Below the pieces are notes generated by a model that was not told the origin of the DNA, made no database searches, and saw nothing but the letters and a program-made list of their open reading frames with translations. A stretch of 64,000 nucleotides of DNA, from assembly GCA_045863335.1 (NCBI GenBank), contig BTVY01000025.1, forward strand, positions 947 through 64,946. Reading direction: 5' to 3'. Origin of the DNA: Candidatus Hydrogenedentota bacterium. Lineage in GTDB: Bacteria > Hydrogenedentota > Hydrogenedentia > Hydrogenedentales > SLHB01. This document shows, piece after piece, positions 1,897-58,125 of the stretch (position 1 is its first letter; each line of letters begins with the position of its first letter). The position numbers and the translations under genes were made by a program.

Positions 1897-3576
1897 TCAG
1901 TGCTTGACGAGTTTGCGGTACCGGCTACGGCGGTTTTCGAAGAGCTTGGAACCGAACTCCTTCACGCGCCATGCCTCGTATTCCTGGAAGTTGCCGTTGA
2001 ACCAACGGACGTTCCCTTCGCCTTCGAAGACAAGCAGGTGCGTGCAGATCCGGTCCAGGAAGAAGCGGTCGTGGCTGGTGACCAGAACGCAGCCGCGGAA
2101 ATTGAGGATCGCCTCTTCGAGCAGACGGAGCGTGTTTACGTCGAGGTCGTTCGTGGGCTCGTCGAGGAGGAGGACGTTTCCGCCTTCTTTCAATAGTTTC
2201 GCAAGATGGCAGCGGTTCCGCTCGCCGCCGGAGAGATTGCCGACGTTCTTCTGCTGATCCTGGCCTTTGAATCCAAAGGTGGCGAGGTACTTGCGGATGG
2301 GTATCCGCTGTTTGCCGAGTTCCACTTCTTCCTTGCCGTCCCCCACTTCTTCCACGAGACTGCGATCGGCCTGCAACTCTTCGCGATCCTGATCGACATA
2401 TGCGAAGGACACGGTTGATCCGATGACCACTTCGCCGGCATCCGGCGTTTCGCGGCCGACGATCATGCGCATCATGGTGGTCTTGCCGGTTCCGTTGGGG
2501 CCGACGATGCCGACGATGGCGGCTTTGGGAATGATGAAGCTGACGTCGTTGAAGAGGGGGACGCCGCCGAACTGCTTGCTGACACCTTTGAACTCGATCA
2601 CCTGGTCGCCGAGTTCGGGGCCGGGCGCGATCTGAATGACCGCGCCGTCCTGTTTGCTGGCGGCCGTCTCGCGGGCGACGAGTTGTTCGTAATGGGCAAG
2701 GCGGGTTTGCGCGAGTTCGTGGCGGTCCTTGTTGCTCATGCGAATCCAGGAGAGTTCATGTTCCAGCGCCCGGCCGCGGGGCGAGTCTTTCTTTTCCTCC
2801 GACGCGAGCTTGGTCAGTTTCTGCTCGAGCCAGGTCGAGTAGTTGCCCTCCCAGGGGACGCCATGGCCACCGTCGAGTTCGAGGATCCACTTCGTGACGT
2901 TATCGAGGAAATAGCGGTCGTGGGTCACGATGATGACGGTGCCGGGGTAGTCTTTGAGCTGTTCCTCGAGCCAGTCGACGGTTTCGGCGTCGAGATGGTT
3001 GGTGGGCTCGTCGAGGAGAAGCAGGTCCGGCCGTTCGAGCAGGGCTTTGCACAGGGCGACGCGACGCTTCTCGCCGCCGCTGAGGGTCTTGATGATGCGG
3101 TCGTCGTCGGGCAGGCAGAGGGCCTCGCTGGCCTGGTTCAAGCGGGTGTCGAGATTCCACGCGTCGGCGGCGTCGAGCTTGTCCTGCAGGACGCCCATGC
3201 GGTCGATGGCGGCCTGCATGTCGTCGTCGGACATGGGCTCGGACATGCTGGCGGTGATGGCTTCGTACTCTTTCATCAGCGCCATGGTTTCGGAGAAGGC
3301 GGATTCGAGGACCTGGCGGACGGTGGCTTCGAGGTCGAGGTGCGGCTCCTGGGCGACCATCTTGGCCTCGTAGCCTTTGGAGATGTCGGCCTTGCCGTTG
3401 AAGTCGTGGTCCTGGCCGGCCATGATGCGGAGCACGGTGGACTTGCCCGCACCGTTCTCGCCGACGATGCCGATCTTGGCGCCGGGGAAGAAGCATAGGT
3501 TGATGTCCTTGAGGACGTGCTTCTGGCCGAAGTGCTTGTTCAGGCCGAGCATGGTGAAGATGTACTGTTCCGCCAT
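1897..3576 (-). CDS. ettA: energy-dependent translational throttle ABC-F ATPase EttA
   Basis: The 559-aa product has two ABC cassettes. The N-terminus MAEQYIFTMLGLNKHFGQKHVLKDINLCFFPGAKIGIVGENGAGKST aligns over its length with the E. coli EttA pattern. A GAGGAG ribosome-binding site sits 9 nt upstream on the minus strand. Confidence 0.9.
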   Translation of the reverse strand: MAEQYIFTMLGLNKHFGQKHVLKDINLCFFPGAKIGIVGENGAGKSTVLRIMAGQDHDFNGKADISKGYEAKMVAQEPHLDLEATVRQVLESAFSETMALMKEYEAITASMSEPMSDDDMQAAIDRMGVLQDKLDAADAWNLDTRLNQASEALCLPDDDRIIKTLSGGEKRRVALCKALLERPDLLLLDEPTNHLDAETVDWLEEQLKDYPGTVIIVTHDRYFLDNVTKWILELDGGHGVPWEGNYSTWLEQKLTKLASEEKKDSPRGRALEHELSWIRMSNKDRHELAQTRLAHYEQLVARETAASKQDGAVIQIAPGPELGDQVIEFKGVSKQFGGVPLFNDVSFIIPKAAIVGIVGPNGTGKTTMMRMIVGRETPDAGEVVIGSTVSFAYVDQDREELQADRSLVEEVGDGKEEVELGKQRIPIRKYLATFGFKGQDQQKNVGNLSGGERNRCHLAKLLKEGGNVLLLDEPTNDLDVNTLRLLEEAILNFRGCVLVTSHDRFFLDRICTHLLVFEGEGNVRWFNGNFQEYEAWRVKEFGSKLFENRRSRYRKLVKH

Positions 3577-3870
3577 GGGTCTCCTCTTTTACGGAATGCA
3601 CCGGTACCGGTGGCTTGGATCGTGGATATCGTTAGACCGTCCGTGATGGACGCAAGACTTATTTTACACACAGAAACATCGAGAGAAAAGGACGTCGGGC
3701 AGTCGGGGCTGGATGAGCATGGATCGGGCATTCAGCCCTTGTGTTTCCGGTATCACAGTTTCCTGGGGCGTTGCCCCAGGCTGGTATGGGGCGCGCCGTT
3801 GGCGCTTAAGAGCATTTCTCACGTGGTGGTCGCGTTTAGAAGAAAGCGGAACGTCTGCGCTACGTACCGA

Positions 3871-6573: not shown

Positions 6574-8382
6574 GTGAACACCTTTTCCCAATGGCTACGG
6601 AATGTGAATTGCTTCGTTGTTGGCGCGATGGGATTGTGCGTTGCGGTGTCCGCGACGGACTACTACGTGGCGACGACCGGGTCGGACGAGGCGACGGGCT
6701 CACAAGATGCGCCGTTCCGCACGGTCCAGCGCGCAGCCGCAGCCATGCAGGCCGGTGACACGTGCATCGTGCGCGAAGGCGTATACCGGGAGACGGTTCG
6801 CCCCGCGAATTCGGGCAGTGCAGACCAGCCTATTACCTTTCGCGCGGCGGAAGGGGAGTCTGTGGTCGTGAGCGGGGCCGAGCCCATCGAAGGTCGGTCG
6901 GCGCAGGACGGCCGTTGGACAGCGCAGGCGGACTTTGATTTCGAGCAGCTCTTCGTCGACGGTGTCATGATGCCGCCGGCGCGATGGCCGAGTATGGACG
7001 CCGGTGCGATCTGGCCTACCTTTGCGGAGGCGGACGACGGCAGCGACGCGACCGGTATCGTGGACGCGGATTTGCCCGAGGTCGACCTGGCGGGTGCGCG
7101 CATCCACGTATTGCCCGGAAGGCGGTGGGTGTCGTGGATGCGGCCGGTTGACGGCATGGAGTCGCGCGACACGGCGCGCAAGGTGTTGTTCGAGGGGTCC
7201 TGGAGCCAGGAACCCGCGTATCGCATCGAGAAGGGCACGCAGTATTACCTCTTCGGAGCGCCGTCGCTACTGGATGCGCCGGGTGAATGGTGCGTGGATG
7301 GGACGACGGTGACACTGATTCCGCCGGCGGATGCTGCGCCGGACGGCCTACGGATTGAGGCCAGGAAGCGGGAGTTCGCTTTCGATCTCCGCGAGCGAAG
7401 CCACATCGTCGTTGAAGGGATTCGGATCTTCGCGGCGACAATTCACTTGGGCGATGCGCAAGGGTGCACGATTGAGAACTGCCATCTGCGGTATCCCTCC
7501 CACTTCACGAATCCGGATGGCTGGACGATTCCCGACAGCGGCATCGTTGTGAGTGGGAAGGACAATATCATTCGGTCATGTTCCGTCCAGTACAGCGCGG
7601 GTAACGGCATTACGTTGGACGGTGAGAACAACACGGTGACAAATTGTCTCGTGCGCTACGTCGATTATATGGCGACGGATTGCGGCGCGATTTTCGCGCG
7701 GGGCCGGGGCAACATCATCGAGCGGAATACCCTTTGCGAGACGGGACGCAGCGTGTTATTGCACCGGGCACTGAAGGCGGGCCGCATCGAGTACAACGAC
7801 ATCTTTCATGCGGGAATCCTGACGACGGATTTGGGGAGCACGTACTGCTTCCAGACGGACGGCGAAGGGACGGTTATCGCGTACAACTGGGTGCACGACA
7901 ACCTCGCCGATCATGTAGGCGTTGGCATCTACATCGATAACGGCTCCAAGAATTTCCTAATCCATCACAACGTGTCGTGGAACAATCCGGACAGCGGCAT
8001 CCGGCTCAACACGCCGTCGCACGACAATCTCGTGTACAACAACACGGTCCTAGACAATGGCAACAGCCTGAGCTACTGGGGTCCCGATGGCGAAGACCGG
8101 CAGCCGGGCTGCCGCGCAATGAATAACATCTTCACGAACAAGGTGGAACCCGGCGATGGGATTGAGATGAGCCACAACTTTGAGGGTGGCGATCCTGGCA
8201 TGGAGTCAATTGACGAACACGACTTTTGGTTGGCCGAAGGATCTCCCTGTATCGACGCCGGAACTCGAATCGAGGGAATTACGGACGGGTACATCGGTCT
8301 AGCGCCAGATATCGGCGCCTATGAGTTCGGCGGAACTCCCTGGAAACCCGGTCACGACTGGGGAGAGCCGCCGGAGTTTTGA
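6574..8382 (+). CDS. secreted right-handed parallel beta-helix (pectate-lyase fold) repeat protein
   Basis: GTG start with an AGGA/GAGG ribosome-binding site. It has a signal peptide and the motif DYYVATTGSDEATGSQDAPFRTVQRA..AGDTCIVREGVYRE typical of pectate-lyase-fold proteins. Repeated NxxxxNN/GNGI beta-helix rungs follow. Confidence 0.6.
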   Translation: MNTFSQWLRNVNCFVVGAMGLCVAVSATDYYVATTGSDEATGSQDAPFRTVQRAAAAMQAGDTCIVREGVYRETVRPANSGSADQPITFRAAEGESVVVSGAEPIEGRSAQDGRWTAQADFDFEQLFVDGVMMPPARWPSMDAGAIWPTFAEADDGSDATGIVDADLPEVDLAGARIHVLPGRRWVSWMRPVDGMESRDTARKVLFEGSWSQEPAYRIEKGTQYYLFGAPSLLDAPGEWCVDGTTVTLIPPADAAPDGLRIEARKREFAFDLRERSHIVVEGIRIFAATIHLGDAQGCTIENCHLRYPSHFTNPDGWTIPDSGIVVSGKDNIIRSCSVQYSAGNGITLDGENNTVTNCLVRYVDYMATDCGAIFARGRGNIIERNTLCETGRSVLLHRALKAGRIEYNDIFHAGILTTDLGSTYCFQTDGEGTVIAYNWVHDNLADHVGVGIYIDNGSKNFLIHHNVSWNNPDSGIRLNTPSHDNLVYNNTVLDNGNSLSYWGPDGEDRQPGCRAMNNIFTNKVEPGDGIEMSHNFEGGDPGMESIDEHDFWLAEGSPCIDAGTRIEGITDGYIGLAPDIGAYEFGGTPWKPGHDWGEPPEF

Positions 8383-9916: not shown

Positions 9917-11113
9917 TTACAGCCAGTGATGCCAGGAGTAGACCATGGCTTCCTGCCGTTTCATCGAAGTACCGCCCCCAAAAACCAGGGCCGCTGGACA
10001 GTCTTTCTGTCCCGGTAGCGAACGCCAATACTGCAATCCCTTGAAGAAATCGGCAGCAATGGTTTCACCCGACTTGATCTCTATGGGAACGAGTTCCATT
10101 CCGTGGTCAAGAACCAGATCCACCTCATTGCCGGCGGAATCCCGCCAAAAATGAACGTCTGGCTCAAGGCCCTGGTTCAAGTAGGACTTTAGGAGCTCAG
10201 TCAATACGAAGGTCTCAAATACTGCCCCTCTGGACGAGTGGGTGACGAGTTCGTCCACAGACCGAATTCTCAAAAGATAGCAGAGTAGACCGGTGTCGAG
10301 AAAGTACAGTTTGGGCGACTTTACAAGACGTTTGCTGAAGTTCTTGTGATAGGGACGAAGCAAGTAAACGATGAAACTCGCTTCAAGTACAGCCAACCAG
10401 CGTTTGGCCGTGGCGTGGCTAACGCCACAGTCTGCGCCCAGAGAAGATAGGTTGAGCATCTGTCCAGTCCTGCCCGCGCATAGCCGAACGAATCGTCCGA
10501 AGGTCTCAATGTCTCCAACATTGAGAATGGAGCGAACGTCTCGCTCAATGTAGGTTTGGTAGTAGTTGCGGAGCCATTCCTGTGGATCGAGCCCTTTGTC
10601 ATGAATTCTAGGATAGGACCCGGCGAAGAGCGTTTGGAACAGGTTTGCCTGCCCGGGCTTCCGCTTGGGGAGCGCGCGTCCAATGTCCTTGATGGGCAGT
10701 GGCTCTCTCGCTTCAAGCTCCGCTCTTGAAAAGGGAAGTAGATGAAACACCGAAGTTCTGCCTGCGAGACTCTGCGAGACTTGTTGGAGGAGCAGGAAGT
10801 TCTGTGAGCCGGTCAGGACAAACTGTCCTGGCTTGTCCTCAGCATCCACAATGCCTTGAATGTATGAAAACAAATTCGGTACGCGCTGAACTTCATCAAG
10901 GACCACGCCACGGTCAAACTGCCCCAGGAAACCTCGAGGGTCTTCGGCGGCGAATTCGCGAATGTCTGGGGCTTCCAGGGATACGTAGGTATGCTTGCCA
11001 AAAAGGCTCCGTACGAGCGTGGTCTTTCCCGATTGACGCGGTCCGGTAACGGTAAGAACGGGGTAGTGCGATGCGCTTCGCTTGAGTGTAGCCGCAAGAT
11101 GTCGAGTAATCAT
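9917..11113 (-). CDS. AAA+ ATPase with C-terminal DUF4143-type domain (COG1373-like)
   Basis: Walker A motif GPRQSGKTT near the N-terminus. Overall ~400-aa architecture matches the widespread ATPase/DUF4143 family. AGGAGG ribosome-binding site before the ATG at 11113. Confidence 0.75.
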   Translation of the reverse strand: MITRHLAATLKRSASHYPVLTVTGPRQSGKTTLVRSLFGKHTYVSLEAPDIREFAAEDPRGFLGQFDRGVVLDEVQRVPNLFSYIQGIVDAEDKPGQFVLTGSQNFLLLQQVSQSLAGRTSVFHLLPFSRAELEAREPLPIKDIGRALPKRKPGQANLFQTLFAGSYPRIHDKGLDPQEWLRNYYQTYIERDVRSILNVGDIETFGRFVRLCAGRTGQMLNLSSLGADCGVSHATAKRWLAVLEASFIVYLLRPYHKNFSKRLVKSPKLYFLDTGLLCYLLRIRSVDELVTHSSRGAVFETFVLTELLKSYLNQGLEPDVHFWRDSAGNEVDLVLDHGMELVPIEIKSGETIAADFFKGLQYWRSLPGQKDCPAALVFGGGTSMKRQEAMVYSWHHWL

Positions 11114-11320
11114 CACCCCTCCTCGCTTGCGTCATTATGAATATTCAATATTCAAATTGCAAAAAGGGGCCGCAAAGTAGAGAACTCTATTGTGACCTGT
11201 GGTCGCGGTCACTAACCGTCACATGCCGTAAACACGAATTGGGCACTTTACAGGCACTAGCCCGGCGGTGGGATTGCACAAGGCGTTTCAGAAGAGAGGC
11301 ATGACGACGAGAAAAAAGTA

Positions 11321-11414
11321 TGGCGGAGAGAGAGGGATTCGAACCCTCGGTACGGGTTTACCCCGTACAACGGCTTAGCAGGCCGCCACCTTCAGCCACT
11401 CGGTCATCTCTCCG
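11321..11414 (-). tRNA. tRNA-Ser (anticodon GCU), class II with long variable arm, CCA encoded
   Basis: Minus-strand sequence GGAGAGATGACCGAGTGGCTGAAGGTGGCGGCCTGCTAAGCCGTTGTACGGGGTAAACCCGTACCGAGGGTTCGAATCCCTCTCTCTCCGCCA folds as a class II tRNA. It has a 7-bp acceptor stem, 3-bp D-stem, anticodon loop CUGCUAA, a long variable arm, the T-arm GGTTCGAATCC and a 3' CCA. Confidence 0.85.
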
Positions 11415-11484
11415 AAGAAAAGCAGCGATTAGGGTAGCATGCGGCTGCGAATTGATGCAAATTGGGGGCGATGCGTTGGGGATC

Positions 11485-11520
11485 ATAGGACGTATAGGAC
11501 GGATTGGACCTATAGGACGA
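11485..11520. repeat. four tandem 9-bp units ATAGGACGN upstream of tRNA-Ser
   Basis: The sequence is cataggacgt ataggacgg attggacct ataggacga. It lies 70-105 bp upstream of the tRNA 5' end on the transcribed (minus) side. Confidence 0.5.
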
Positions 11521-11592
11521 ATGTGGCGGGGACCTGCGGGAACCGGGGTAGATAGAGCGCCGGATCGGGGGAGCGCGATTGGCGCTCGTCCG

Positions 11593-13041
11593 CTATTTGT
11601 TCTTGATGGCGTTGTAAGCTTCGAGGGCGCGTTCGCGGGCCTGGGCATGATCGACGATAGGGTGCGGGTATGTGTCGCCTAGGGTAATGCCCGCTTCGGA
11701 CAGTTCCACTTCGGAAGCTTCCCAGGGTTTGTGAATCCACTTGGACGGAAGATTTGCCAGCTCGGGAATCCATTCGCGAACGTAGTCACCTTCGGGATCG
11801 TAGCGTTCGCCCTGGGTCACGGGGTTGAAGATGCGGAAGTAGGGGGCCGCGTCGGCGCCGCACCCTCCGGTCCATTGCCATCCCTGGGTGTTGTTGGCGA
11901 GGTCGGCGTCGACGAGGGTGTCCCAGAACCAGCGCGCGCCTTCGAGCCAGTGAATGAGCAGGTCTTTGGTCAGAAACGATGCGACGATCATGCGGACGCG
12001 GTTGTGCATCCAGCCGGTGGTCCAGAGTTCGCGCATGCCGGCATCGACGATGGGGTAGCCGGTCATGCCCTTCTGCCACGCGCGCAGGGCCTTCTCATCA
12101 TCCGCCCACGGGAAGCGGTTGAACTGTTCGCGCAGATTCTCGTTGGGCACGTGGGGGAAGTGGTAAAGCAGGTGGTGGGAAAACTCGCGCCAGCCGAGTT
12201 CCGCGAGGAATTTCTCGGCGCCATTCGCGGCACCTTTGCCGGAAATCCCTGCGAGATGGTTCTGCGTGGTGCCCCAGATCTGCCGGGGGCTGATTTCGCC
12301 GAAGTGGAGATGGGGCGACAAACGTGAGGTGCCGAAGATGTCGGGACGGTCGCGGGATGAATCGTAGTCGGCGACGGCGTCCTCCAGGAACCGGTTCAGT
12401 TGTTCCGCGGCCGCGCCTTCGCCCATGGACCACGCCTTTCGAATGCCTTGGTCCCATGAGATGCCCGGCAATAACCGCAACGCTTCCAACTCCAGTGAAG
12501 CGGGCCAATCGTTCGGCGCGGGAATCTTGCGCGGTGCGGGGAACGGTTCAGCGGGGTCGTCCTTCGCGAGGCAAGCCTTCCAGAAAGGCGTAAACACCTG
12601 GTAGGGATCGCCCTGTTTGGTTTCGATCTCCCAGGGCTCGAAGAGGAGCGAACCATTAAAGCTCATGGCGTCGCAGCCCATGTCGCGAAGGGCGGTCTTG
12701 ATGATCTCGTCGCGCGTTCGAATCGTGGGTTCGTAACGGCGGTTCCAGAAAACGGCCCCCGCGCCGGTGTCGCGAACAAGACCCTCCAAAACGTCCTGGG
12801 AGCGGCCTTTCAGAACGATTAAGCGGGAGTGCTTATCCCGCAGGGAAGCATCCAGCGCGGAAAGTGAGTGGTGGAGCCAGACCTTAGAGGCAGCGCCGGT
12901 CGGCCACTCCCCCTCTTCTTCCGGCGCGTGGATGTACGCGGGAATGATGGGTCCGCCGCGCTTGACGGCGGTGGCTAAAGCGGGATTGTCCTCGATCCGG
13001 AGGTCCTGTCGAAACCAGACGATTGCAGGTGATGTGCTCAT
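11593..13041 (-). CDS. phr: deoxyribodipyrimidine (CPD) photolyase
   Basis: The N-terminus IVWFRQDLRIEDNPAL and the FAD-binding region WREFSHHLLYHFP...NTQGWQWTGG...DAAPYFRIFNPVTQGERYDPEGDYVREWIPEL carry canonical photolyase motifs. Confidence 0.9.
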   Translation of the reverse strand: MSTSPAIVWFRQDLRIEDNPALATAVKRGGPIIPAYIHAPEEEGEWPTGAASKVWLHHSLSALDASLRDKHSRLIVLKGRSQDVLEGLVRDTGAGAVFWNRRYEPTIRTRDEIIKTALRDMGCDAMSFNGSLLFEPWEIETKQGDPYQVFTPFWKACLAKDDPAEPFPAPRKIPAPNDWPASLELEALRLLPGISWDQGIRKAWSMGEGAAAEQLNRFLEDAVADYDSSRDRPDIFGTSRLSPHLHFGEISPRQIWGTTQNHLAGISGKGAANGAEKFLAELGWREFSHHLLYHFPHVPNENLREQFNRFPWADDEKALRAWQKGMTGYPIVDAGMRELWTTGWMHNRVRMIVASFLTKDLLIHWLEGARWFWDTLVDADLANNTQGWQWTGGCGADAAPYFRIFNPVTQGERYDPEGDYVREWIPELANLPSKWIHKPWEASEVELSEAGITLGDTYPHPIVDHAQARERALEAYNAIKNK

Positions 13042-33726: not shown

Positions 33727-33848
33727 GGCTGGAAGCCTGCACCACAATGGGCGGCAGGGAAACCTGCACAATGCCCGGCAGGGAAACCTGCACAATGCCC
33801 GGCAGGGAAACCTGCACAAGTAGCAGGGAAGCCTGCACAAGGCGCGGG
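33727..33848. repeat. 24-bp tandem repeat (GGCAGGGAAACCTGCACAATGCCC), about 5 units
   Basis: Three near-perfect units lie at 33753-33824, flanked by degenerate units. Each unit contains the mini-palindrome GCAGG-GAAA-CCTGC. Confidence 0.85.
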
Positions 33849-47644: not shown

Positions 47645-49039
47645 ATGTCGCAGGAATTCAAACTCATCAGACCGAACTTTGTGCCGCCGCTGGACGAGGG
47701 GTATCGTCCGGCCGTGCTGGCGAACCGCGCGTTTCGCGCCGAAGTCGAGGCGTCCGGGGAGGGGGTTCCCTTGGTGCTGGGGCTGGAGCGGGCGGACGGG
47801 TCCGTATCGCGTTACGAGACGCAGGTATTTCCAGAGGGCCACGCACGGGCGCAAGCGAACCTGTTCTACGTGGAACGGCTGGTCAAGTTCCTGTTGTGGC
47901 AGCGCGGCGGCTGGAAGGTCTACGTGGGTGGGCCGCGCAGCATCGGCGAACACATCGCCACGGTATACGCCATGGGCGGCGCGCGGGAGTTCGACTTCAA
48001 GTTTATGGGTGAGGACGTGTACGAACACACGTTCACCGTGGTTCCATGCGACGTGTCGGACGTCCCGGCGGAAAACGAAACAACGCAGGCGCTTGGGCGT
48101 CATCTGGACGGATGCCGCATCGGGTTTGACCTGGGCGCATCGGATCGCAAGGTGTCGGCCGTCGTGAACGGCGAGGCAGTGTACAGCGAAGAGGTTGTGT
48201 GGGAGCCGCGCAAGCAGACGGATCCCGCGTACCACTACAACGGGATCATGACCGCGTTGAAAACGGCTGCGTCCAAGATGGACCGGGTCGATGCCATCGG
48301 CGGCAGCTCCGCGGGCGTGTACATCAACAACCGGCCCATGATCGCATCGCTGTTCCGGGGAATCCCGAAGGATCGCTTCGACGAGGTCCACAATCTGTTC
48401 CTGCGCATCCGCGACGAGATGGGTGTGCCGCTGGAAATCGTGAATGACGGCGAGGTCACCGCGCTCGCGGGGTCCATGTCGCTGGAAGACAACGGCGTGC
48501 TGGGGATCGCACTCGGGTCGAGCGAGGCGGGCGGCTATGTGACTATGGACGGCAACATCACGGGCTGGCTGAACGAATTGGCCTTCGCGCCGGTGGACTA
48601 CAGTCCGGACGCGCCGAAGGACGAATGGTCCGGCGATGCGGGTGTGGGCGCGTTGTACTTCTCGCAGCAGTGCGTGTTCCGGTTGGCACCCAAGGCGGGA
48701 ATCGAACTGCCGAAGGACGTGACCGACGCGGAAAAGCTCAAGGCCGTGCAGGAGAAGCTGGAAGCAGGCCACGAAGGCGCGACGGACATCTGGCGGAGCA
48801 TGGGCATCTACATGGGGTATACCATCGCCCACTACGCGGACTTTTACGAACTCAAACACGTGCTGGTGTTGGGACGTTGCACGTCCGGCAAAGGCGGCGA
48901 CTTGATCGTGAACGGCGCGAATGAAGTGTTGAATGCCGAGTTCCCCGAACTGGCGAAACGGATTGAAGTACAATTGCCGGACGAAAAGGCGCGCCGGGTC
49001 GGGCAGTCGATCGCAGCGGCAAGTCTGCCGGCGATATAG
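47645..49039 (+). CDS. ROK/sugar-kinase-like (ASKHA fold) protein with ~150-aa N-terminal extension (tentative)
   Basis: GFDLGASDRKVSAVVNGE (phosphate-1-like), DAIGGSSAGVY and EIVNDGEVTALAG (ROK/glucokinase-like blocks). The N-terminal domain is unassigned. Confidence 0.45.
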   Translation: MSQEFKLIRPNFVPPLDEGYRPAVLANRAFRAEVEASGEGVPLVLGLERADGSVSRYETQVFPEGHARAQANLFYVERLVKFLLWQRGGWKVYVGGPRSIGEHIATVYAMGGAREFDFKFMGEDVYEHTFTVVPCDVSDVPAENETTQALGRHLDGCRIGFDLGASDRKVSAVVNGEAVYSEEVVWEPRKQTDPAYHYNGIMTALKTAASKMDRVDAIGGSSAGVYINNRPMIASLFRGIPKDRFDEVHNLFLRIRDEMGVPLEIVNDGEVTALAGSMSLEDNGVLGIALGSSEAGGYVTMDGNITGWLNELAFAPVDYSPDAPKDEWSGDAGVGALYFSQQCVFRLAPKAGIELPKDVTDAEKLKAVQEKLEAGHEGATDIWRSMGIYMGYTIAHYADFYELKHVLVLGRCTSGKGGDLIVNGANEVLNAEFPELAKRIEVQLPDEKARRVGQSIAAASLPAI

Positions 49040-49079
49040 GAAAGAACACGGACTTGCACGGACGGGCACGGACGAAGAG
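49040..49079. repeat. 10-bp-periodic CACGGAC array (3 units) starting right after the stop codon
   Basis: GAAAGAACACGGACTTGCACGGACGGGCACGGACGAAGAG. Confidence 0.8.
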
Positions 49080-49126
49080 AAGAAATAGCAACCGCCTCGA
49101 TCGAACTGGCGGATAGGAGAGGACGA

Positions 49127-49975
49127 ATGAAGTTTACGTTGGAAGGCGCACAGGTATTTGTGCCCGATCATTTGCCGGTTGAGGAGGCGCTCAGCCGGAC
49201 CACCCATATCGCCATCGGCGCGCATCAGGACGACCTGGAGATCATGGCGTACGACGGCATCATCAAGTGCTTTCAGCAGGAAGACAAGTGGTACTGCGGC
49301 GTCGTGGTGACGGACGGGAGCGGCTCGCCGCGCGACGATGTGTACAAGGATTACACCGACGACGAAATGCGGGTCGTGCGGGTGAAGGAGCAATTCAAGG
49401 CGGCGGTGGTCGGTGAGTACTCCGCGCAAGTCATGCTCGATTACCCGAGCAAAGCGGTGAAGGATGGCTCTGACAAGCGGCCGGTCGAAGACATCGTGAA
49501 AATCCTTCGCGCGACGCGACCGGAGGTGGTGTATACGCACAACCTCACCGACAAGCACGACACGCATATCGGCGTGACCTTGAAAGTCATCGAAGCGATC
49601 CGGAGTCTGCCCGCCCCGGAACGTCCGCAGGCCTTGTATGGTTGCGAAGTGTGGCGGGATCTGGACTGGATGGTGGACACGGACAAAGTAGCCTTTGACT
49701 GTTCAGCCCACGAAAACTTGCAGGCGGCGCTGTTGGGCGTCTTCGACTCGCAGATCGCAGGCGGCAAGCGGTACGACCTGGCAACCCTGGGCCGGCGCCG
49801 CGCCCATGCCACGTACCACGCGTCGCACGCCACGGACGTAACCACGGGGATCAGTTTTGCCATGGACCTAACCCCGCTCATTGACGATGCGGAGCGGGAT
49901 GTGGCGGACTTCGCGCAGGAACTGATTCGGCGTTTCGCGAGCGACGTGGCGGTGCGCATCGGCAAGCTTCGCTAA
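49127..49975 (+). CDS. PIG-L/LmbE family N-acetylglucosaminyl deacetylase
   Basis: IAIGAHQDDLEIMAYDG (HxDD motif) plus the His/Asp zinc ligands VYTHNLTDKHDTH. AGGAGAGGA ribosome-binding site. Confidence 0.7.
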   Translation: MKFTLEGAQVFVPDHLPVEEALSRTTHIAIGAHQDDLEIMAYDGIIKCFQQEDKWYCGVVVTDGSGSPRDDVYKDYTDDEMRVVRVKEQFKAAVVGEYSAQVMLDYPSKAVKDGSDKRPVEDIVKILRATRPEVVYTHNLTDKHDTHIGVTLKVIEAIRSLPAPERPQALYGCEVWRDLDWMVDTDKVAFDCSAHENLQAALLGVFDSQIAGGKRYDLATLGRRRAHATYHASHATDVTTGISFAMDLTPLIDDAERDVADFAQELIRRFASDVAVRIGKLR

Positions 49976-50049
49976 ACCAGAGGGCAAGAAATGTGGACTC
50001 GCACGACCGTGGCTTGCGAACGACCTTTATGTTGAGCGAGTTTCACGGT

Positions 50050-50223
50050 TCGTGCGCGAAGGCGATTAAGATGGGTTCCCGCTTTCGCGGGAATGACGGC
50101 GTGGGGGGGTTGCAGAATGCCTCGCTCTATCCGTCATTCCCGCGAAGGCGGGAATCCAGTGCAACGTCCGGCACTTCCGGGGATCCCCGAAAGCGACGTC
50201 TGATCAAACAATGGCGTATCGCC
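50050..50223 (+). ncRNA. candidate cobalamin (AdoCbl) riboswitch-like leader upstream of the btuF-like gene (tentative)
   Basis: GGGAATCCAGTGCAACGTCCGGCAC (50149-50173) resembles the E. coli btuB leader core GGGAAUCCAGUGCGAAUCUGGAGC, as far as I recall it. The leader also contains a 22-bp near-perfect inverted repeat (50078-50099 / 50131-50152). I cannot verify the full consensus or the B12 box. Confidence 0.3.
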
Positions 50224-51099
50224 GTGCTGACACTTGCGTTCGCAATCGGCGTCCTCTCTTCCACAGGTTGCTCGCCTGAGGCGGCAGTTGAAAATCCGGC
50301 CAGGCACGGCATCATCTCCATGTCGCCAAATATCACGGAGACCCTCTTCGCCCTAGGGCAGGGCGATCGCATCATCGCGGTGACTGCGTATTGCGATTAT
50401 CCGCCGGAAGTGGAATCGCTGCCGGATGTGGGCGGATACATCGATCCCAATCTCGAAAGAATCACAATGCTCGATCCCGGGCTGATCATCCTTCCGGGCA
50501 AGCATGAGAAGGTTGCCGCACTCGCGAAGCAGAACGGATTCCCCGTGCTCCACGCGCATATGGATAGTCTCGCCACGATTCACGACGGCATTACCCGGAT
50601 CGGAGAAGCGCTGGAGTGTCCGGACGAAGCAACGGCGCTGTGGAATCAGATCCAAAGCGAGTTGGATGCGATACGCGCGGCAGTCGAAGGACAGCCGAGG
50701 CCGAAGGTCCTGTTGATCAATACGCGGTCGAACCATGACCTGAACAACCTCTTCACGGTGGGCAGCAAATCGTTTCTCTCCGAGATGCTGGACGTGGCCG
50801 GCGGCGAGAATCTCTTTGGCGATGAAACGGTGGACTATTTCGAGGCCTCCAAGGAATCGGTGGTCGTGCGTGCACCCGACGTAATCATCGAGTGTCATGC
50901 GGGCGAAGGGCTCTCGCAAGAGGAGTTGCAACAGTATCGCGACGACTGGAACGCGCTGCCGTCGTTGCCTGCTGTCGAGTCGGAGCGTATCTACTTGTTT
51001 GAGGAGTCCTACGCGTTGCGGCCCGGACCGCGCATAGCATTGATCGCCGCGCAGTTCGCGCGCTGGTTGCATCCCGACATTGAGATCCCCGCGCCATGA
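50224..51099 (+). CDS. ABC transporter periplasmic substrate-binding lipoprotein, BtuF/FecB (class III) type
   Basis: Lipobox VLSSTGC; IISMSPNITETLFALGQGDRIIAVTAYCDYPPEV; LDPGLIIL. I take the GTG at 50224. The ORF track starts at 49993, which would run through the structured leader. Confidence 0.65.
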   Translation: MLTLAFAIGVLSSTGCSPEAAVENPARHGIISMSPNITETLFALGQGDRIIAVTAYCDYPPEVESLPDVGGYIDPNLERITMLDPGLIILPGKHEKVAALAKQNGFPVLHAHMDSLATIHDGITRIGEALECPDEATALWNQIQSELDAIRAAVEGQPRPKVLLINTRSNHDLNNLFTVGSKSFLSEMLDVAGGENLFGDETVDYFEASKESVVVRAPDVIIECHAGEGLSQEELQQYRDDWNALPSLPAVESERIYLFEESYALRPGPRIALIAAQFARWLHPDIEIPAP

Positions 51100-51899
51100 C
51101 GCGCGTGTTGCGCTCGGAGAATGTGACCTTCGCCTATGAACCGGGAACGGACGTGATCTCCGGCGTCGGCGCGTCCGTGGAGAGCGGGACGATCACGGGG
51201 CTCGTCGGGCCGAATGGTTCAGGGAAGAGCACGTTGCTGCGCGTTTTGGCGGGATTGCTGCGGCCGCGATCGGGAAGCATTCTCATCGACGAGCGGCCGT
51301 TGAGCGTCGTATCAAACCGCGAACGGGCGCGCATCATGGGGTTTCTGCCGCAAGCGGTGAATCCGGTGTTCTCGCTGAACGTGTTCGAGGTGGTATGCCT
51401 GGGACGCTATCCGCATCTTGGCGCGTTGGGCGCATTGCTGCCCCACGACCGGACTGTGGCGCACCGCTGTTTGCGCGATACCGGCACCGAGGATCTGCAC
51501 AACCGCAATTTCATGTCCCTGTCCGGCGGTGAACGTCAGCGGGTGTTGCTGGCGAGCGTGCTGGCGCAGGAGCCGGACCTGTTGTTGCTGGACGAACCGA
51601 CCTCGTCGCTGGACATCCATCATCAGATCGAGATTTTCGCGCTGCTGCGGCGGCTGGCGTCGGAAGGCTACGGCATCGGCGTCGTCACGCACGACCTTAA
51701 TCTTGCAGCGCGATTCTGCGATCGATTGTATCTGTTGTCGCACTTGTCGACCGGCCTCATCGCTTCCGGTGAACCGGGTGCGGTGCTGACCGAGGAACTA
51801 CTGTCGAAGGCCTACGACGCGCCCATTCGCGTGTGCCGCCATCCCCTGACGGGCGCGCCGCTGATCACGGCGGAGGAACCTGCGGAGTCAGCGCCATGA
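51096..51899 (+). CDS. ABC transporter ATP-binding protein (FecE/BtuD family)
   Basis: Walker A GPNGSGKST, signature LSGGERQR, Walker B LLLLDEPT. ATGA overlap with the upstream gene. Confidence 0.85.
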   Translation: MTRVLRSENVTFAYEPGTDVISGVGASVESGTITGLVGPNGSGKSTLLRVLAGLLRPRSGSILIDERPLSVVSNRERARIMGFLPQAVNPVFSLNVFEVVCLGRYPHLGALGALLPHDRTVAHRCLRDTGTEDLHNRNFMSLSGGERQRVLLASVLAQEPDLLLLDEPTSSLDIHHQIEIFALLRRLASEGYGIGVVTHDLNLAARFCDRLYLLSHLSTGLIASGEPGAVLTEELLSKAYDAPIRVCRHPLTGAPLITAEEPAESAP

Positions 51900-52930
51900 C
51901 GAGAAGTACACGCAGATGGCTGACCGTCGCGGTGGCGCTGGGCTCCGTCGTGCTCATGACGGCCAGTCTGCTCATCGGCACGGAAACCCTGAGCGTCGGG
52001 CGCATTGTTGCGGAATGGCGCGCGGGAGAAGCGATCAACGACTCGCCCGCGCTGAGCATCCTGTTCAACCAACGCATGCCGCGCACGCTGGTGGCGCTGA
52101 TCGTCGGGTGCGGTCTGACCATTGCGGGATGTTCCTTTCAGGCCTTGTTGCGGAATCCACTCGCGACGCCGTACACCTTGGGCATTGACAGCTTCGGGGC
52201 CTTCGGGGCCTACGCGGCAACGATCTTCGGATCGGCAGCGGGCTGGACGGCATTTGAGATCGCGGGCTTCTCCCATGTGCAGGCCTCGGCCTTCGCCTTC
52301 GCCACCTTCGACGTGCTGCTGATTTACGGCATGGCGACGCGCAAGACCCGCATGGCGCCGTCGGTGTTGTTGCTCGCGGGCGTGACGCTGGGTCTGCTCG
52401 CGGGGTCCGGCATTCTGTTCCTGCGCTACCTCGCCCGTCCGGAGCAATTGGTCAACATGGACCGCTGGCTCATGGGCGGCGTCGACGTGATCGGCTACGA
52501 GCCCGTGCTGACGCTGCTCATCGGCGTGGTGCCGTGCTCGATCGTTTTGCTGGCGCAGGCGCCGAAGTTCGACCAGCTCGGGTTTGGCGAGGAGATGGCG
52601 GCCGGCCGCGGCGTGAACGTGCGGCGTCTGCAACTGACGACGTTCCTCGTGTGCTCGCTCATGACCGGGATCATCGTGTCCAAAGTGGGCCCCATCGGGT
52701 TCGTCGGGCTCATCGTCCCCCACGCGGTACGGTCGATCACCGGGTCGCGCCATCGCGTGCTCATGCCCGTGAGTATGATCGCGGGCGGGGCGTTTCTCTG
52801 CGCCTGCGATATCATCGCGCGGAAGTTTATGACGGGAGAGACGCCGATAGGGATTATCACGTCGCTGATTGGGGCACCGTTCTTTTTGTATTTGTTGACG
52901 AGAAGGCGGTTTACGGATTGGGAGACGTAG
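51896..52930 (+). CDS. FecCD-family ABC permease (BtuC-like)
   Basis: The ATGA overlap makes the 51896 start likely. Ten transmembrane helices of FecCD type, with GAPFFLYLL at the C-terminus. Confidence 0.85.
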   Translation: MTRSTRRWLTVAVALGSVVLMTASLLIGTETLSVGRIVAEWRAGEAINDSPALSILFNQRMPRTLVALIVGCGLTIAGCSFQALLRNPLATPYTLGIDSFGAFGAYAATIFGSAAGWTAFEIAGFSHVQASAFAFATFDVLLIYGMATRKTRMAPSVLLLAGVTLGLLAGSGILFLRYLARPEQLVNMDRWLMGGVDVIGYEPVLTLLIGVVPCSIVLLAQAPKFDQLGFGEEMAAGRGVNVRRLQLTTFLVCSLMTGIIVSKVGPIGFVGLIVPHAVRSITGSRHRVLMPVSMIAGGAFLCACDIIARKFMTGETPIGIITSLIGAPFFLYLLTRRRFTDWET

Positions 52931-52934
52931 GGAA

Positions 52935-53024
52935 TACGGACCTACACGGACCTACACGGACCTACACGGACCTACACGGGCAGACACGGACAGACACGGG
53001 CAGACACGGGCAGACACGGTCGGT
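52935..53024. repeat. 10-bp tandem array, 9 units (ACGGACCTAC x4, ACGGRCAGAC x4, and one more)
   Basis: Begins 5 nt after the permease stop. The periodicity is strictly 10 bp. Confidence 0.9.
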
Positions 53025-53077
53025 GATCTCGCGAGGAACCGCGTCGCCGTGTGCGATGGACGGCGAATTGAATTCCC

Positions 53078-53776
53078 CTATTCTTTCCGCTTCTTCCGTC
53101 GCCGTTCGGTGCGGATGCGGTAGAGGCGTTCTGAGAAGCCGCCTTCTTCGGTGAAGGTCTCGCCCTGGGAGTCGACCTGGCGTTTGAGGAGGTAGCTGGC
53201 GAGGTTGATGAGGGATAGGGCGGCGTTCGCGGCGAGGATCGCGGAGGGCGGGGTGGAAGAACACGGACGTACATGGACCGACGCGGACGCACACGGACGT
53301 GGGGACTCCACTTGATCCGATTTGTTCTTTCCGTCCGTGTTGGTCTGTGTGGGTCCGTGTAGGTCCGTGCGGTGGAACTTCAGTTCGTCGGCCACCCAGG
53401 CCTGCACCTCCTGGAGTGTGGCACAGCGCCGCTTCTTGAAGCGCTGCAACGCCGGATGATCCGGCGGGTACTCGGGTAGACCCCGCTGCCGGAGGAAATC
53501 TTCGTAATCATCGTGCAGTTCTTCCAAACTGCCACGCGCAATGTTGGTCAGAAACATCTCTGACTTTTTCGATGTGGCGGAATCGATGCTGCCTTCGGCG
53601 ATGTTTTGCACGCCAGAGCGCGCGGCTTGGACCATTTGATCGTGGGTGCGACCTCGTTTCTCAAGGTACAACTCGCAGAAACGAAATGTTACGTCGTAGA
53701 TCAACCGGGCGACTTGGAAGGACTTGAGGCTCCGGTAACCTCCATGGTTGGGGATGAGTTTCTCGTCGTCGGACAT
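53078..53776 (-). CDS. four-helix-bundle protein (TIGR02436-like, 23S-rRNA-IVS-protein family) carrying a ~75-aa in-frame insertion made of the CACGGAC repeat
   Basis: The N-terminal ~100 aa (LKSFQVARLIYDVTFRF...ARGSLEELHDDYEDFL) and the C-terminal ~50 aa (ILAANAALSLINLASYLLKRQ) look like a normal four-helix-bundle protein. The middle (TDLHGPTQTNTDGKN...SASVHVRPCS) is encoded by the inverted decamer arrays at 53248-53363. Confidence 0.5.
   Translation of the reverse strand: MSDDEKLIPNHGGYRSLKSFQVARLIYDVTFRFCELYLEKRGRTHDQMVQAARSGVQNIAEGSIDSATSKKSEMFLTNIARGSLEELHDDYEDFLRQRGLPEYPPDHPALQRFKKRRCATLQEVQAWVADELKFHRTDLHGPTQTNTDGKNKSDQVESPRPCASASVHVRPCSSTPPSAILAANAALSLINLASYLLKRQVDSQGETFTEEGGFSERLYRIRTERRRKKRKE
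53248..53363. repeat. inverted pair of CACGGAC decamer arrays (4 direct + 4 inverted units, 28-bp spacer)
   Basis: Left arm 53253-53293 reads ACACGGACGT ACATGGACCG ACGCGGACGC ACACGGACGT. The right arm 53323-53363 is its approximate reverse complement. Confidence 0.85.
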
Positions 53777-55347: not shown

Positions 55348-55388
55348 TACATCCCCCTTGATCCCCCTTCGAAGGGGGAGTTGTGCTC
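55348..55388. repeat. REP-like palindromic element, copy d
   Basis: TACATCCCCCTTGATCCCCCTTCGAAGGGGGAGTTGTGC, 3 nt after the aminotransferase stop. Confidence 0.8.
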
Positions 55389-57243: not shown

Positions 57244-58125
57244 ATGACGGCTGCTGCTATGCACCGCACATCCGGCGACCGTCGCACGCTCGTGGTTCAC
57301 ACCGGTGGGATTGGTGACTTTTTGCTCTTTTGTCCTTCCCTTCTTCGGCTTCGGGAAGAAGGTCCGGTTACGCTCGCGGGGTTCCGCGACCGGCTGAATC
57401 TTGCCGTCGTGACGGGGATTGCGGAGGATGCGTTGGACCTGGATGACACGGGATTCGAGTCGGTGTTTTCCGAACCCAATGCGATTTTGCAGCGCTTTCT
57501 CGCGCGATTCGACCGGGCGGTGGTGTGGATGAATGACGACGGCGCGATTGCACGCGCGTTTGAAGCCTGCGGTGTTGGCGATTTGCGTGTGTTCCCGGGT
57601 CTCCCACCGGAGGGCTGGACGCGGCATGCGTCGGCGTATTACGCAGAGCAATTGGGACTCGGTGCATTGCCGCCGTTTCGACTCCCTATCGAGGCATCAG
57701 AGACTCCGCATGACGTGTTGATTCATCCCGGCAGCGGAGGAAAGAAGAAGAACTGGCCTATGGAGCGTTTTGCCGAAGTCGCAGCGCGGCTGACGCAGCT
57801 TGGCAGGAACGTTGCGTGGATTCGCGGGCCGGCGGAGGAATCGATACGGATCCCTCCTGGAGCGAACCTGATCGAGACGCCGTCATTGGTAACGCTGGCG
57901 CGTGATCTGGCAGCTACGCGGTTGTACGTGGGGAACGACAGCGGGGTCACGCACCTCGCGGCGGCATGCGGATGCCGGACGGTGGCGGTCTTCGGGCCGA
58001 CGGACCCGGCGGTCTGGGCGCCGCGCGGGGAGCACGTGACGGTGGTTCATGGCGACCCGTGGCCGGGGATCGGGGATGTTATGGACGGTATGGGCGATAT
58101 GGACCGGATGGACAGCGCCGGGTAG
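57244..58125 (+). CDS. glycosyltransferase family 9 (heptosyltransferase-like)
   Basis: LVVHTGGIGDFLLFCPSL...LIHPGSGGKKKNWPMERF...YVGNDSGVTHLAAACGCRTVAVFGPTDPAVWAP are GT9 signature blocks. Confidence 0.75.
   Translation: MTAAAMHRTSGDRRTLVVHTGGIGDFLLFCPSLLRLREEGPVTLAGFRDRLNLAVVTGIAEDALDLDDTGFESVFSEPNAILQRFLARFDRAVVWMNDDGAIARAFEACGVGDLRVFPGLPPEGWTRHASAYYAEQLGLGALPPFRLPIEASETPHDVLIHPGSGGKKKNWPMERFAEVAARLTQLGRNVAWIRGPAEESIRIPPGANLIETPSLVTLARDLAATRLYVGNDSGVTHLAAACGCRTVAVFGPTDPAVWAPRGEHVTVVHGDPWPGIGDVMDGMGDMDRMDSAG

Follow-up and report, generated by a model that had tools for sequence, protein, structure and literature searches.

What are the strictly periodic CACGGAC arrays that lie beside and within a small gene of a Candidatus Hydrogenedentota bacterium, and what, if anything, reads them? 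The question is raised by a 64,000-nucleotide stretch of contig BTVY01000025.1 of a metagenome-assembled genome (GenBank assembly GCA_045863335.1, positions 947 to 64,946 of the forward strand), here called the window, in which a preliminary description had noted three loci of CACGGAC cores at a 10-bp phase. A scan of this 64-kb window for CACGGAC cores (at most one mismatch) chained at exactly 10-bp spacing in runs of at least three units found such chains at four places only, 49047-49073, 52935-53021, 53262-53298 and 53333-53369, the last two being the arms of a single inverted array, and the three loci are present as stated. The phased three-core pattern (up to two mismatches) gave 11 matches against 0.00 expected from 100 dinucleotide-preserving shuffles of the window; the lone CACGGAC 7-mer is barely enriched (25 vs 14.1 expected), and hence the signal resides in the phasing. 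The analysis presented herein shows that these arrays are copies of a selected repeat family that is shared across phyla and genetically tied to one gene family, termed here the four-helix-bundle suffix gene, and we tentatively propose that they are recognition sites for an oligomeric protein. The arrays and the gene concerned are as follows.

49040-49079, forward strand: array 1, a purine-rich lead-in (GAAAGAA) and then three CACGGAC cores (49047-49073) at a 10-nt phase
52931-53024, forward strand: array 2, nine units (cores 52935-53021) at a strict 10-nt phase
53333-53369, reverse strand: sense arm of array 3, four cores on the coding strand of the gene at 53078-53776, translated as TDLHGPTQTNTD
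53262-53298, forward strand: antisense arm of array 3, four cores that are of GTCCGTG type on the mRNA, translated as ...PCASASVHVRPC
53078-53776, reverse strand: four-helix-bundle suffix gene, 232 amino acids (aa), clade A (10-nt repeat type)

Arrays 1 and 2 begin just past stop codons, as had been claimed for them. Array 1 is located between the TAG of a ROK-like gene (open reading frame (ORF) 47645-49039, a weak ROK match) and the ATG (49127) of a PIG-L deacetylase gene, and its prefix starts 1 nt past the TAG. The first core of array 2 lies 4 nt past the TAG of a FecCD permease gene (51896-52930), and 57 nt separate the end of the array from the stop of the suffix gene, which is convergent and on whose strand the array reads GTCCGTG. 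Array 2 is built of two blocks, one of four units that is followed by the spacer CTA and one of five units, the first four of which are trailed by AGA. Of its nine units only four are exact CACGGAC; three are CACGGGC, and TACGGAC and CACGGTC occur once each. Array 3 is a 4+4 inverted pair, as first described, but the space from innermost core to innermost core is 34 nt and not 28, and the inverted arm ends at 53369 and not at 53363. The prefix GAA(A)GAACACGGAC, said to be shared by two arrays, is indeed common to arrays 1 and 3.

A repeat family kept across lineages and phyla

A sign of selection comes from orthologous sites in the relatives L235 and L236/L237, whose housekeeping proteins are 91-95% identical and whose four-fold degenerate sites are 47-56% identical. 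Array 1 has an orthologue in L235 and in L236/L237, at the same position past the ROK-like stop and with 3-4 units. The three lineages agree at all 21 core positions and in the 10-nt phase, and they differ in every spacer (TTG, GGG / CGA, CAG / CTA, GGT, AAA). Since the cores and the phase are kept while spacers and four-fold sites have diverged, array 1 is under selection. The preliminary description had proposed that unit numbers varying freely, with no positional rule, would indicate microsatellites devoid of function, and this is not what is seen, as orthologous sites keep their position and the count varies only slightly (3-4). Conservation of this kind is unusual, in that a 7-nt core and a fixed phase are kept both across phyla and at orthologous intergenic sites whose neutral neighbours are near saturation.

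When one genome per species was searched for three exact, phased CACGGAC cores, at least 117 loci in more than 12 phyla were obtained, those of the listed loci being Lentisphaerota, Acidobacteriota, Nitrospirota, Planctomycetota, Verrucomicrobiota, Hydrogenedentota, Desulfobacterota, Gemmatimonadota, Armatimonadota, Sumerlaeota, WOR-3, Spirochaetota and others. Among 181 arrays, 83 have three units and 77 have four, after which there is a sharp drop, and the nine units of array 2 are exceptional (only 3 of the 181 have nine or more). Neighbouring spacers match in only 26% of cases and differ in 74%. Conserved cores, differing spacers and sizes of 3-4 units do not fit neutral slippage, with the exception of array 2 and its two homogeneous blocks. 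A few actinobacterial matches, in which the spacers are identical throughout, look like unrelated homogeneous tandem repeats and were set aside. Logos anchored on GGAC take two forms, CAC-GGAC+N3 and R-T-GGAC+N3, in both of which GGA is invariant in every unit and the C after it and the pyrimidine before it are as conserved as GGA itself.

The listed arrays are mostly beside ordinary genes and mostly extragenic, often past stop codons or between convergent genes, the exceptions being the copies inside the suffix gene and those at the 3' ends of some ORFs. Among the matches listed there are 150 elements, consisting of 35 convergent pairs and 115 single, non-palindromic direct arrays. The pairs typically have 4+4 cores around a loop of 12-120 nt, and many of them are just past stops or between convergent genes. 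Paired arrays that share a contig are usually co-oriented. In the 20 nt before arrays (listed loci and window) TAG is over-represented (34 TAG vs 11 CTA) in a purine-rich lead-in, and most of the long ORFs whose end lies within 20 nt of an array have this TAG as their stop. The start after a stop that had been noted for two of the window's arrays is a tendency and not a rule: at the listed loci the gene ends within 40 nt of single arrays are 13 sense and 6 antisense, with no strong strand rule relative to flanking genes. A strong sense-strand rule past stop codons, suggested by a hand count, was not upheld by a systematic, if crude, gene call based on GC content at third codon positions.

No fixed terminal sequence is present at the arrays of the listed loci and the window, and the lengths of target-site duplications (TSDs) at 28 intergenic hairpins equal those of a shifted control, although the boundaries are fuzzy and short TSDs could escape. 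Clustering of the neighbours at the 117 listed loci revealed no transposase, integrase or other recurrent family beside the arrays except the suffix gene, which surrounds a pair in only 5 of the 117 matches listed. The dispersed hairpins are not decayed suffix genes, as no hidden Markov model matches adjoin them. Arrays are rare on viral contigs (37 matches in a complete scan), and their copy number appears low, at about 1 per 10-100 kb. The suggestion that the arrays are a genome-specific simple-repeat mobile element is thus not borne out, given the occurrence in more than 12 phyla, the 74% of adjacent spacers that differ, and the lack of target-site duplication and of a recurrent transposase. 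What exists instead is a cross-phylum, selected family of phased GGAC-core repeats, of which arrays 1-3 are copies. The family is without description in the literature searched, in which no publication with these repeat strings or on the suffix family was found, in agreement with the earlier remark that no element with a CACGGAC unit had been described.

The suffix gene, its embedded array and its two clades

The protein encoded at 53078-53776 consists of an S23p/Avd-like domain (TIGR02436/PF05635, residues 18-89), a repeat-encoded loop (residues ~138-176) and a TIGR04258 suffix domain (residues 181-227). The scores for TIGR04258 (68.6 bits, cut-off 40) and TIGR02436 (31.4 bits, cut-off 24) are above threshold and that for PF05635 is slightly below (31.8 bits, cut-off 33.8). 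PF05635/TIGR02436 is the S23p or "23S rRNA IVS (intervening sequence) protein" family, in which the Avd protein of diversity-generating retroelements (DGRs) is included. In an AlphaFold2 model the helices of the bundle have a predicted local distance difference test (pLDDT) score of ~90, and residues ~138-176 form a disordered loop between bundle helices (pLDDT ~42). The top PDB folds are 2RLD (S23p family, prob 0.95) and 8UB7_B (DGR Avd, prob 0.82), both with weak E-values, and the C-terminal domain is basic (isoelectric point 10.3). The S23p of X. campestris and Avd are known to be homopentamers (bioRxiv 10.1101/2023.10.23.563531; PMC4990558), and Avd is a pentameric, positively charged barrel for which a defined Avd-binding RNA element has been described (bioRxiv 10.1101/2023.10.23.563531).

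Alignment of 21 homologues from several phyla gives the linker consensus TDxHGxTRTxTD...SVxVxxxPCxSV, which is the translation of four CACGGAC cores at a 10-nt phase and four opposite-strand cores. Array 3 is in frame in its gene, as first reported, but it is not a one-off insertion, the 4+4 array being a family-wide feature of the suffix gene. Phase variation by slippage of 10-bp units within the gene was considered, but the constant 4+4 count and the differing spacers speak against it, and it was rejected.

Two types of repeat match two clades of the protein, as shown by 80 suffix-gene loci gathered by protein similarity. In 32 of the 80, representing the closer homologues (clade A), there are CACGGAC arrays with a 10-nt period at nt ~390-520 of the coding sequence (CDS), usually with four sense and then four antisense cores. 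The remaining, more distant loci (clade B) have RTGGAC cores with a 9-nt period, followed by their inverse, at the same place in the CDS, and the linker protein reads SGQ/NGQ... and then STK/STM.... In the notation used here a four-unit array is (CACGGACNNN)4 for the 10-nt type and (RTGGACNNN)4 for its 9-nt counterpart. In a protein tree from which the linker columns were removed the repeat types separate perfectly, with the nearest neighbour of the same type in 72 of 72 cases, and the residues diagnostic of the clades are in a short helix (107-113) just before the linker.

The leaders of the genes follow the same division. According to the metaprofile, sense GGAC is enriched 5-7 fold at -90..-1 before the start codon in both clades, and about 40% of the members of the two clades have a recognisable sense array that ends 4-27 nt before the start codon. 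Leader type agrees with internal type: in clade A the leader array is of the 10-nt type at 5 loci and of the 9-nt type at 1, and in clade B it is of the 9-nt type at 14 loci and of the 10-nt type at 2. Codon usage within the linker is also distinct: GGA is used for 36%/67% of the linker glycines in the two clades vs 12%/16% elsewhere in the gene, TCC for 39%/52% of the serines vs 14%/13%, and TGT for 57% of the cysteines vs 24%. As the codon choice in the linker departs from the gene's own usage and follows the repeat, selection acts on the nucleotides. The repeat family is genetically tied to the suffix gene, and the repeat unit and its period co-vary with the protein clade.

The 9-nt type is present in the window itself, in the form of two 9-bp-phased GGAC arrays that were absent from the preliminary description.

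11485-11520, forward strand: four units, ATAGGACGT, ATAGGACGG, ATTGGACCT and ATAGGACGA; an intergenic relative of the CACGGAC arrays
58080-58115, forward strand: four units of TATGGACGG type, forming the last codons (...MDGMGDMDRMDSAG and stop) of a GT9 heptosyltransferase ORF (57244-58125), just before its TAG

The second of these is conserved in L235 with changed spacers. In another Hydrogenedentota relative, L243, a 9-unit GGAC array with a 9-nt phase (3537-3612, reverse strand) lies inside a called ORF of 1366 aa.

The history of the locus in its relatives bears on how the arrays and the gene are connected. In L242 (aminotransferase 90% identical) the gene order is kept and the suffix gene, array 1 and array 2 are all missing. 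The suffix-gene site there is ~17 bp long vs ~830 bp in the window, with flanks that align, and the same comparison shows that the insertion junctions of the window's gene carry no arrays. The 10-nt arrays thus co-occur with the suffix gene in this Hydrogenedentota lineage. At the site of array 2, L235 has a 7-unit and a 4-unit array, co-oriented and flanking an orphan ORF of 403 aa (10810-12021, reverse strand), and L236/L237 have no array and a different orphan ORF of 151 aa (L236 10899-11354, reverse strand). Neither ORF has a Pfam or PADLOC match. The spacer between the FecCD and suffix genes is a hot spot, with orphan ORFs in L235 and L236/L237 and none in the window.

The suffix gene is often found inside a Type I restriction-modification (R-M) operon, in the same orientation and with gaps of 13-27 nt to its neighbours. 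Being missing between kept neighbours in L242 and wedged into R-M operons elsewhere, the suffix gene is an accessory intervening ORF in its behaviour. No copy was found on viral contigs or in phage records, the plasmids contain one match and no PADLOC model matches the gene, and for these reasons the phage-borne, plasmid-borne and known-defence readings were dropped. Suffix genes embedded in Type I R-M loci, with HsdM, HsdS and HsdR identified by Pfam, were seen in L202 (2-6185), L189, L196, L214, L215, L219 and L234, and in L202 the order is hsdR-hsdS-suffix gene-hsdM with gaps of 13 and 27 nt.

Proposed recognition by an oligomeric protein and competing explanations

What might the arrays do? 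We tentatively favour the reading that they are phased sites at which an oligomeric protein, probably the product of the suffix gene itself, would recognise its target, and that they would serve in autoregulation and at a few gene junctions. Conserved cores, free spacers, a strict period and 3-4 units have the look of sites for an oligomeric binder. TRAP and HutP on RNA and MetJ and Fur on DNA are examples of oligomeric binders on phased sites. The IVS of Coxiella is a selfish element with an S23p ORF, a tandem heptamer (GACAGAT) in the leader in 2-3 copies, their number varying between strains, and terminal inverted repeats (PMC4990558). Together, the look of oligomeric-binder sites, the toroidal, basic, pentameric relatives (Avd among them contacting a defined RNA) and the leader repeats of the Coxiella IVS lead us to favour recognition by the gene's own product. 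The idea of a cooperative protein-binding array, which had been raised at the outset, thus stands as the best reading in view of the conserved cores, free spacers, strict phase and 3-4 units. The label of iterons that went with it does not, as neither a replication gene nor an origin lies in the vicinity, a unit measures only 9-10 bp, the element belongs to the chromosome and plasmids contain hardly any copy of the linked gene. Direct, helically phased units suited to cooperative binding are found in plasmid iterons also, but iterons are units of 17-22 bp that are located at an origin by a rep gene and are specific to a replicon, whereas the neighbours here are ROK-like, PIG-L, ABC transporter and aminotransferase genes.

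The module is 3-4 cores with free 3-nt spacers, either single or as a 4+4 inverted pair, and in the proposed mechanism each core is the predicted contact site for one subunit of an oligomeric protein. The reader would most probably be the product of the suffix gene, the one constant partner of the arrays, whose S23p/Avd relatives are pentameric, carry positive charge and bind RNA, and its binding would be phased, like that of TRAP or HutP on spaced RNA triplets or of MetJ on tandem DNA met-boxes. The suffix protein may autoregulate by way of its own leader and internal sites, and may also act at a few other junctions, such as the ROK/PIG-L spacer (array 1) and the convergent junction between the FecCD and suffix genes (array 2). 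We infer each of these steps, that is, that a protein reads the cores, that the reader is the suffix protein, that the substrate is RNA or DNA and that the outcome is regulatory.

Comparison with known systems indicates where the likeness lies. With TRAP/HutP (GAG/UAG triplets, ring oligomers), the MetJ met-box and the hexamer arrays of Fur, the present arrays have in common short conserved cores, free spacers, a fixed period and few units, as well as sites in leaders and between cistrons and a candidate reader from a family of toroidal homopentamers. They differ from these in having cores of 5-7 nt that recur every 9-10 nt, in the antisense copies and the copies within the CDS of the candidate reader itself, and in that the binding is putative. 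The homologous Avd of DGRs is likewise a basic, pentameric four-helix bundle that contacts a specific RNA element. However, no reverse transcriptase and no template or variable repeats are near the suffix gene, and Avd is without the suffix domain and the repeat-encoded loop.

Several observations weigh against recognition by the suffix protein. The suffix gene of the window (53078-53776) has no leader array, and the window, although its arrays are of the 10-nt and the 9-nt type, contains a gene of clade A only. A distant Prevotella member of the suffix family has no linker repeats, which means that the embedded array was derived within the family. The link between the arrays and the suffix protein rests on association, which co-inheritance or local gene conversion could explain equally well. 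Away from the suffix gene the arrays are sparse in most gene-centred loci, at about 1 per 100 kb, such that a genome-wide regulon is not supported. The lack of a strong strand rule for single arrays fits neither a strictly RNA-sense role nor that of a promoter operator, and many single arrays are between convergent genes. Finally, four units do not obviously match a pentamer.

The arrays are akin to known kinds of element, namely extragenic repeats and those linked to S23p ORFs, and there is also a real chance that they represent a new protein-repeat system. The boldest version of this, which is possible although on the doubtful side, is an unrecognised cross-phylum system in which a toroidal Avd/S23p-like protein would read GGAC arrays, with a period of 10 nt or 9 nt according to clade and one core per subunit. 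The copies in its own leader and CDS might serve autoregulation or the assembly of a ribonucleoprotein, and the dispersed copies might be further targets. Proteins of the PF05635/TIGR02436 type are very common (more than 8000 clusters for the suffix sub-family) and their function outside DGRs is not known. A motif that matches the clade and is present in the leader, in the CDS and at other junctions is a concrete candidate ligand for them. If the proposal is true, it would provide the first sequence-specific nucleic-acid ligand outside DGRs for the functionally blank S23p/PF05635 family, and would account for the persistence of these small intervening ORFs within operons, those of Type I R-M loci for example. 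There is a practical aspect as well, as in metagenome annotation the repeats give rise to false extensions of ORFs and to spurious peptides of low complexity (TDxHGxTRT, SGQ/STK runs), and gene calls improve once the repeats are recognised.

The competing explanation that survives best, although we consider it unlikely, does without a dedicated protein. The arrays could be self-pairing elements of the kind seen in repetitive extragenic palindromes (REPs) or IVSs, in which sense and antisense cores would pair in hairpins, over long range or in trans and so affect RNA processing, stability or termination, for example as substrates of RNase III. The strict phase and the free spacers would follow from an equal period on both pairing partners, and the leader and internal arrays do share one period. 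The hairpin of array 3 has a fold of -51.3 kcal/mol on the gene strand (z -3.8) and of -72.4 kcal/mol on the other (z -6.0), but arrays 1 and 2, taken by themselves, do not fold. At the intergenic inverted pairs the pairing between spacers is 0.72 vs a null of 0.60 +/- 0.016, such that these are true palindromes, and many pairs are directly past stops or between convergent genes. In the pairs inside suffix-gene copies, in contrast, the spacers are not complementary (0.53) and only the cores match. Moreover, the 115 single elements among the 150 listed have no nearby partner, and the strand asymmetry of G.U vs A.C, determined in 66 homologues as a guide to the functional RNA strand, is not consistent (clade A 13 vs 13). 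There are no T-run terminators at the arrays, and 7-bp stems broken by 3x3 loops would probably be poor RNase III substrates.

An IVS with an S23p ORF does provide a precedent for pairing, in that it forms a stem cut by RNase III (PMC4990558). The likeness to the 23S rRNA IVSs of Coxiella, Leptospira and Brucella extends to the gene family (PF05635/TIGR02436), to the intervening ORF inside other transcription units, and to the inverted repeats and the short tandem repeats just upstream of the start, although the window copy itself is without a leader array. Unlike an IVS, which is in helix 25 or 45 of the 23S rRNA gene and has a terminal stem that is excised by RNase III, the present element is not in rRNA. 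Its inverted repeats are inside the CDS rather than flanking it and are made up of phased 7-nt cores rather than a continuous 28-bp stem, the repeats are dispersed beside unrelated genes and shared across phyla, and the protein has an extra suffix domain. With REPs, the bacterial interspersed mosaic elements built from them and the REP-associated tyrosine transposases (RAYTs), the arrays share the nature of short, dispersed, mostly extragenic repeats that lie past stops or between convergent genes, form some hairpins and have one linked gene family. REPs, however, are single imperfect palindromes specific to a species or genus, whereas the present core occurs in phased arrays in more than 12 phyla. 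The partner here is a four-helix bundle and not a Y1 transposase, its repeats are internal rather than flanking, and the copy number appears low.

It is decidedly unlikely, in our view, that the arrays are recombination junctions or the ends of mobile cassettes, at which the suffix gene and small orphan ORFs are gained and lost and of which solo arrays are the footprints or landing pads. The 403-aa orphan ORF of L235 lies between co-oriented arrays where the window has its two-part 9-unit array, with a different orphan ORF in L236/L237, and this is what such a process might leave behind. It would also account for the presence or absence of the suffix gene between conserved neighbours, its tight insertion (gaps of 13-27 nt) into Type I R-M operons and the usual co-orientation of array pairs on a contig. 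Against it, the listed matches have no recurrent transposase or integrase nearby, and in contrast to the ends of transposons or of miniature inverted-repeat transposable elements the arrays have no fixed terminus and no TSD above the control at the 28 hairpins, whose boundaries are fuzzy. Neither phage records nor viral contigs contain the suffix gene and plasmids contain hardly any copy of it, array 1 is stable between two conserved housekeeping genes in three lineages, and the insertion junctions of the window's suffix gene are free of arrays.

A general host RNA-binding protein seems less probable again as the reader. CsrA has the consensus CANGGANG, which ACACGGAC resembles, and a protein of this type could read GGA in ACACGGAC, with the arrays acting like the CsrB/RsmZ sponges or as leader sites. 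The invariance of GGA in every unit of both repeat types would suit this, as would the arrays in leaders 4-27 nt before starts and past stop codons and the more often sense orientation of nearby gene ends (13 vs 6). CsrB/RsmZ RNAs also have several GGA motifs in one transcript. Yet conservation is equal at the C that follows GGA and at the pyrimidine that precedes it, antisense arrays, in which the transcript is without GGA, are common, and hairpins would bury GGA in stems. The clade-specific 9-nt and 10-nt periods that track the gene are left unexplained. In comparison with CsrB/RsmZ the phase is strict, the core (YGGAC) is longer, there are antisense copies and a tie to a protein gene, and there is no match to a small RNA gene in Rfam.

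Neutral, slippage-prone minisatellites without function are very improbable and largely refuted already, because, despite the homogeneous and somewhat slippage-like blocks of array 2 alone (four units then CTA; five with AGA), its unit number of 9, 7+4 or 0 among relatives and the few actinobacterial matches with identical spacers, array 1 keeps its cores and phase while spacers and four-fold sites diverge, the arrays differ from microsatellites and minisatellites in their heterogeneous spacers (74% of adjacent ones differ), size peak at 3-4 units and conserved position, the same core recurs across phyla, and the repeat dictates codon choice inside the suffix gene.

Candidates set aside and other repeats nearby

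Some more familiar element types were also considered for the arrays. Terminator and promoter scans detected no terminator-like or promoter-like site at the arrays and no T-run after the hairpins, and intrinsic terminators were rejected for want of the trailing T-run. A CRISPR (clustered regularly interspaced short palindromic repeat) array was rejected because cores of 7 nt with 3-nt spacers are at odds with repeats of 23-47 bp and unique spacers of similar length. A search of the array region against Rfam 15 gave only spurious sub-threshold matches of microRNA models to hairpins and no known RNA family. It also gave no rRNA match, and the context is protein-coding.

A source of spurious microRNA matches is a different, REP-like family, represented in the window at 50072-50158 by a 28-nt inverted repeat (TGGGTTCCCGCTTTCGCGGGAATGACGG / CCGTCATTCCCGCGAAGGCGGGAATCCA, 93% complementary) with a 31-nt loop, upstream of a gene for a substrate-binding protein. 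A third type of repeat, ACATCCCCCTTGATCCCCCTTCGAAGGGGGAG, is found at 55349-55383 of the window, at 5900-6070 of L242 and, as the reverse complement, at ~15080-15150 of L236. An element of the ACATCCCCCTTGATCCCCCTTCGAAGGGGGAG kind fills the ROK/PIG-L spacer of L242, where there is no array 1, and follows array 1 in L236/L237. In Prevotella nigrescens (L241, NZ_CP082843.1) a different palindromic repeat with a 9-bp period (TTCCTAGGA type, 6672-6707) lies directly past the stop of the distant suffix-family gene that is without linker repeats. The window also contains, at 33743-33847, a 24-bp tandem repeat, CACAATGCCCGGCAGGGAAACCTG, in 4.5 copies.

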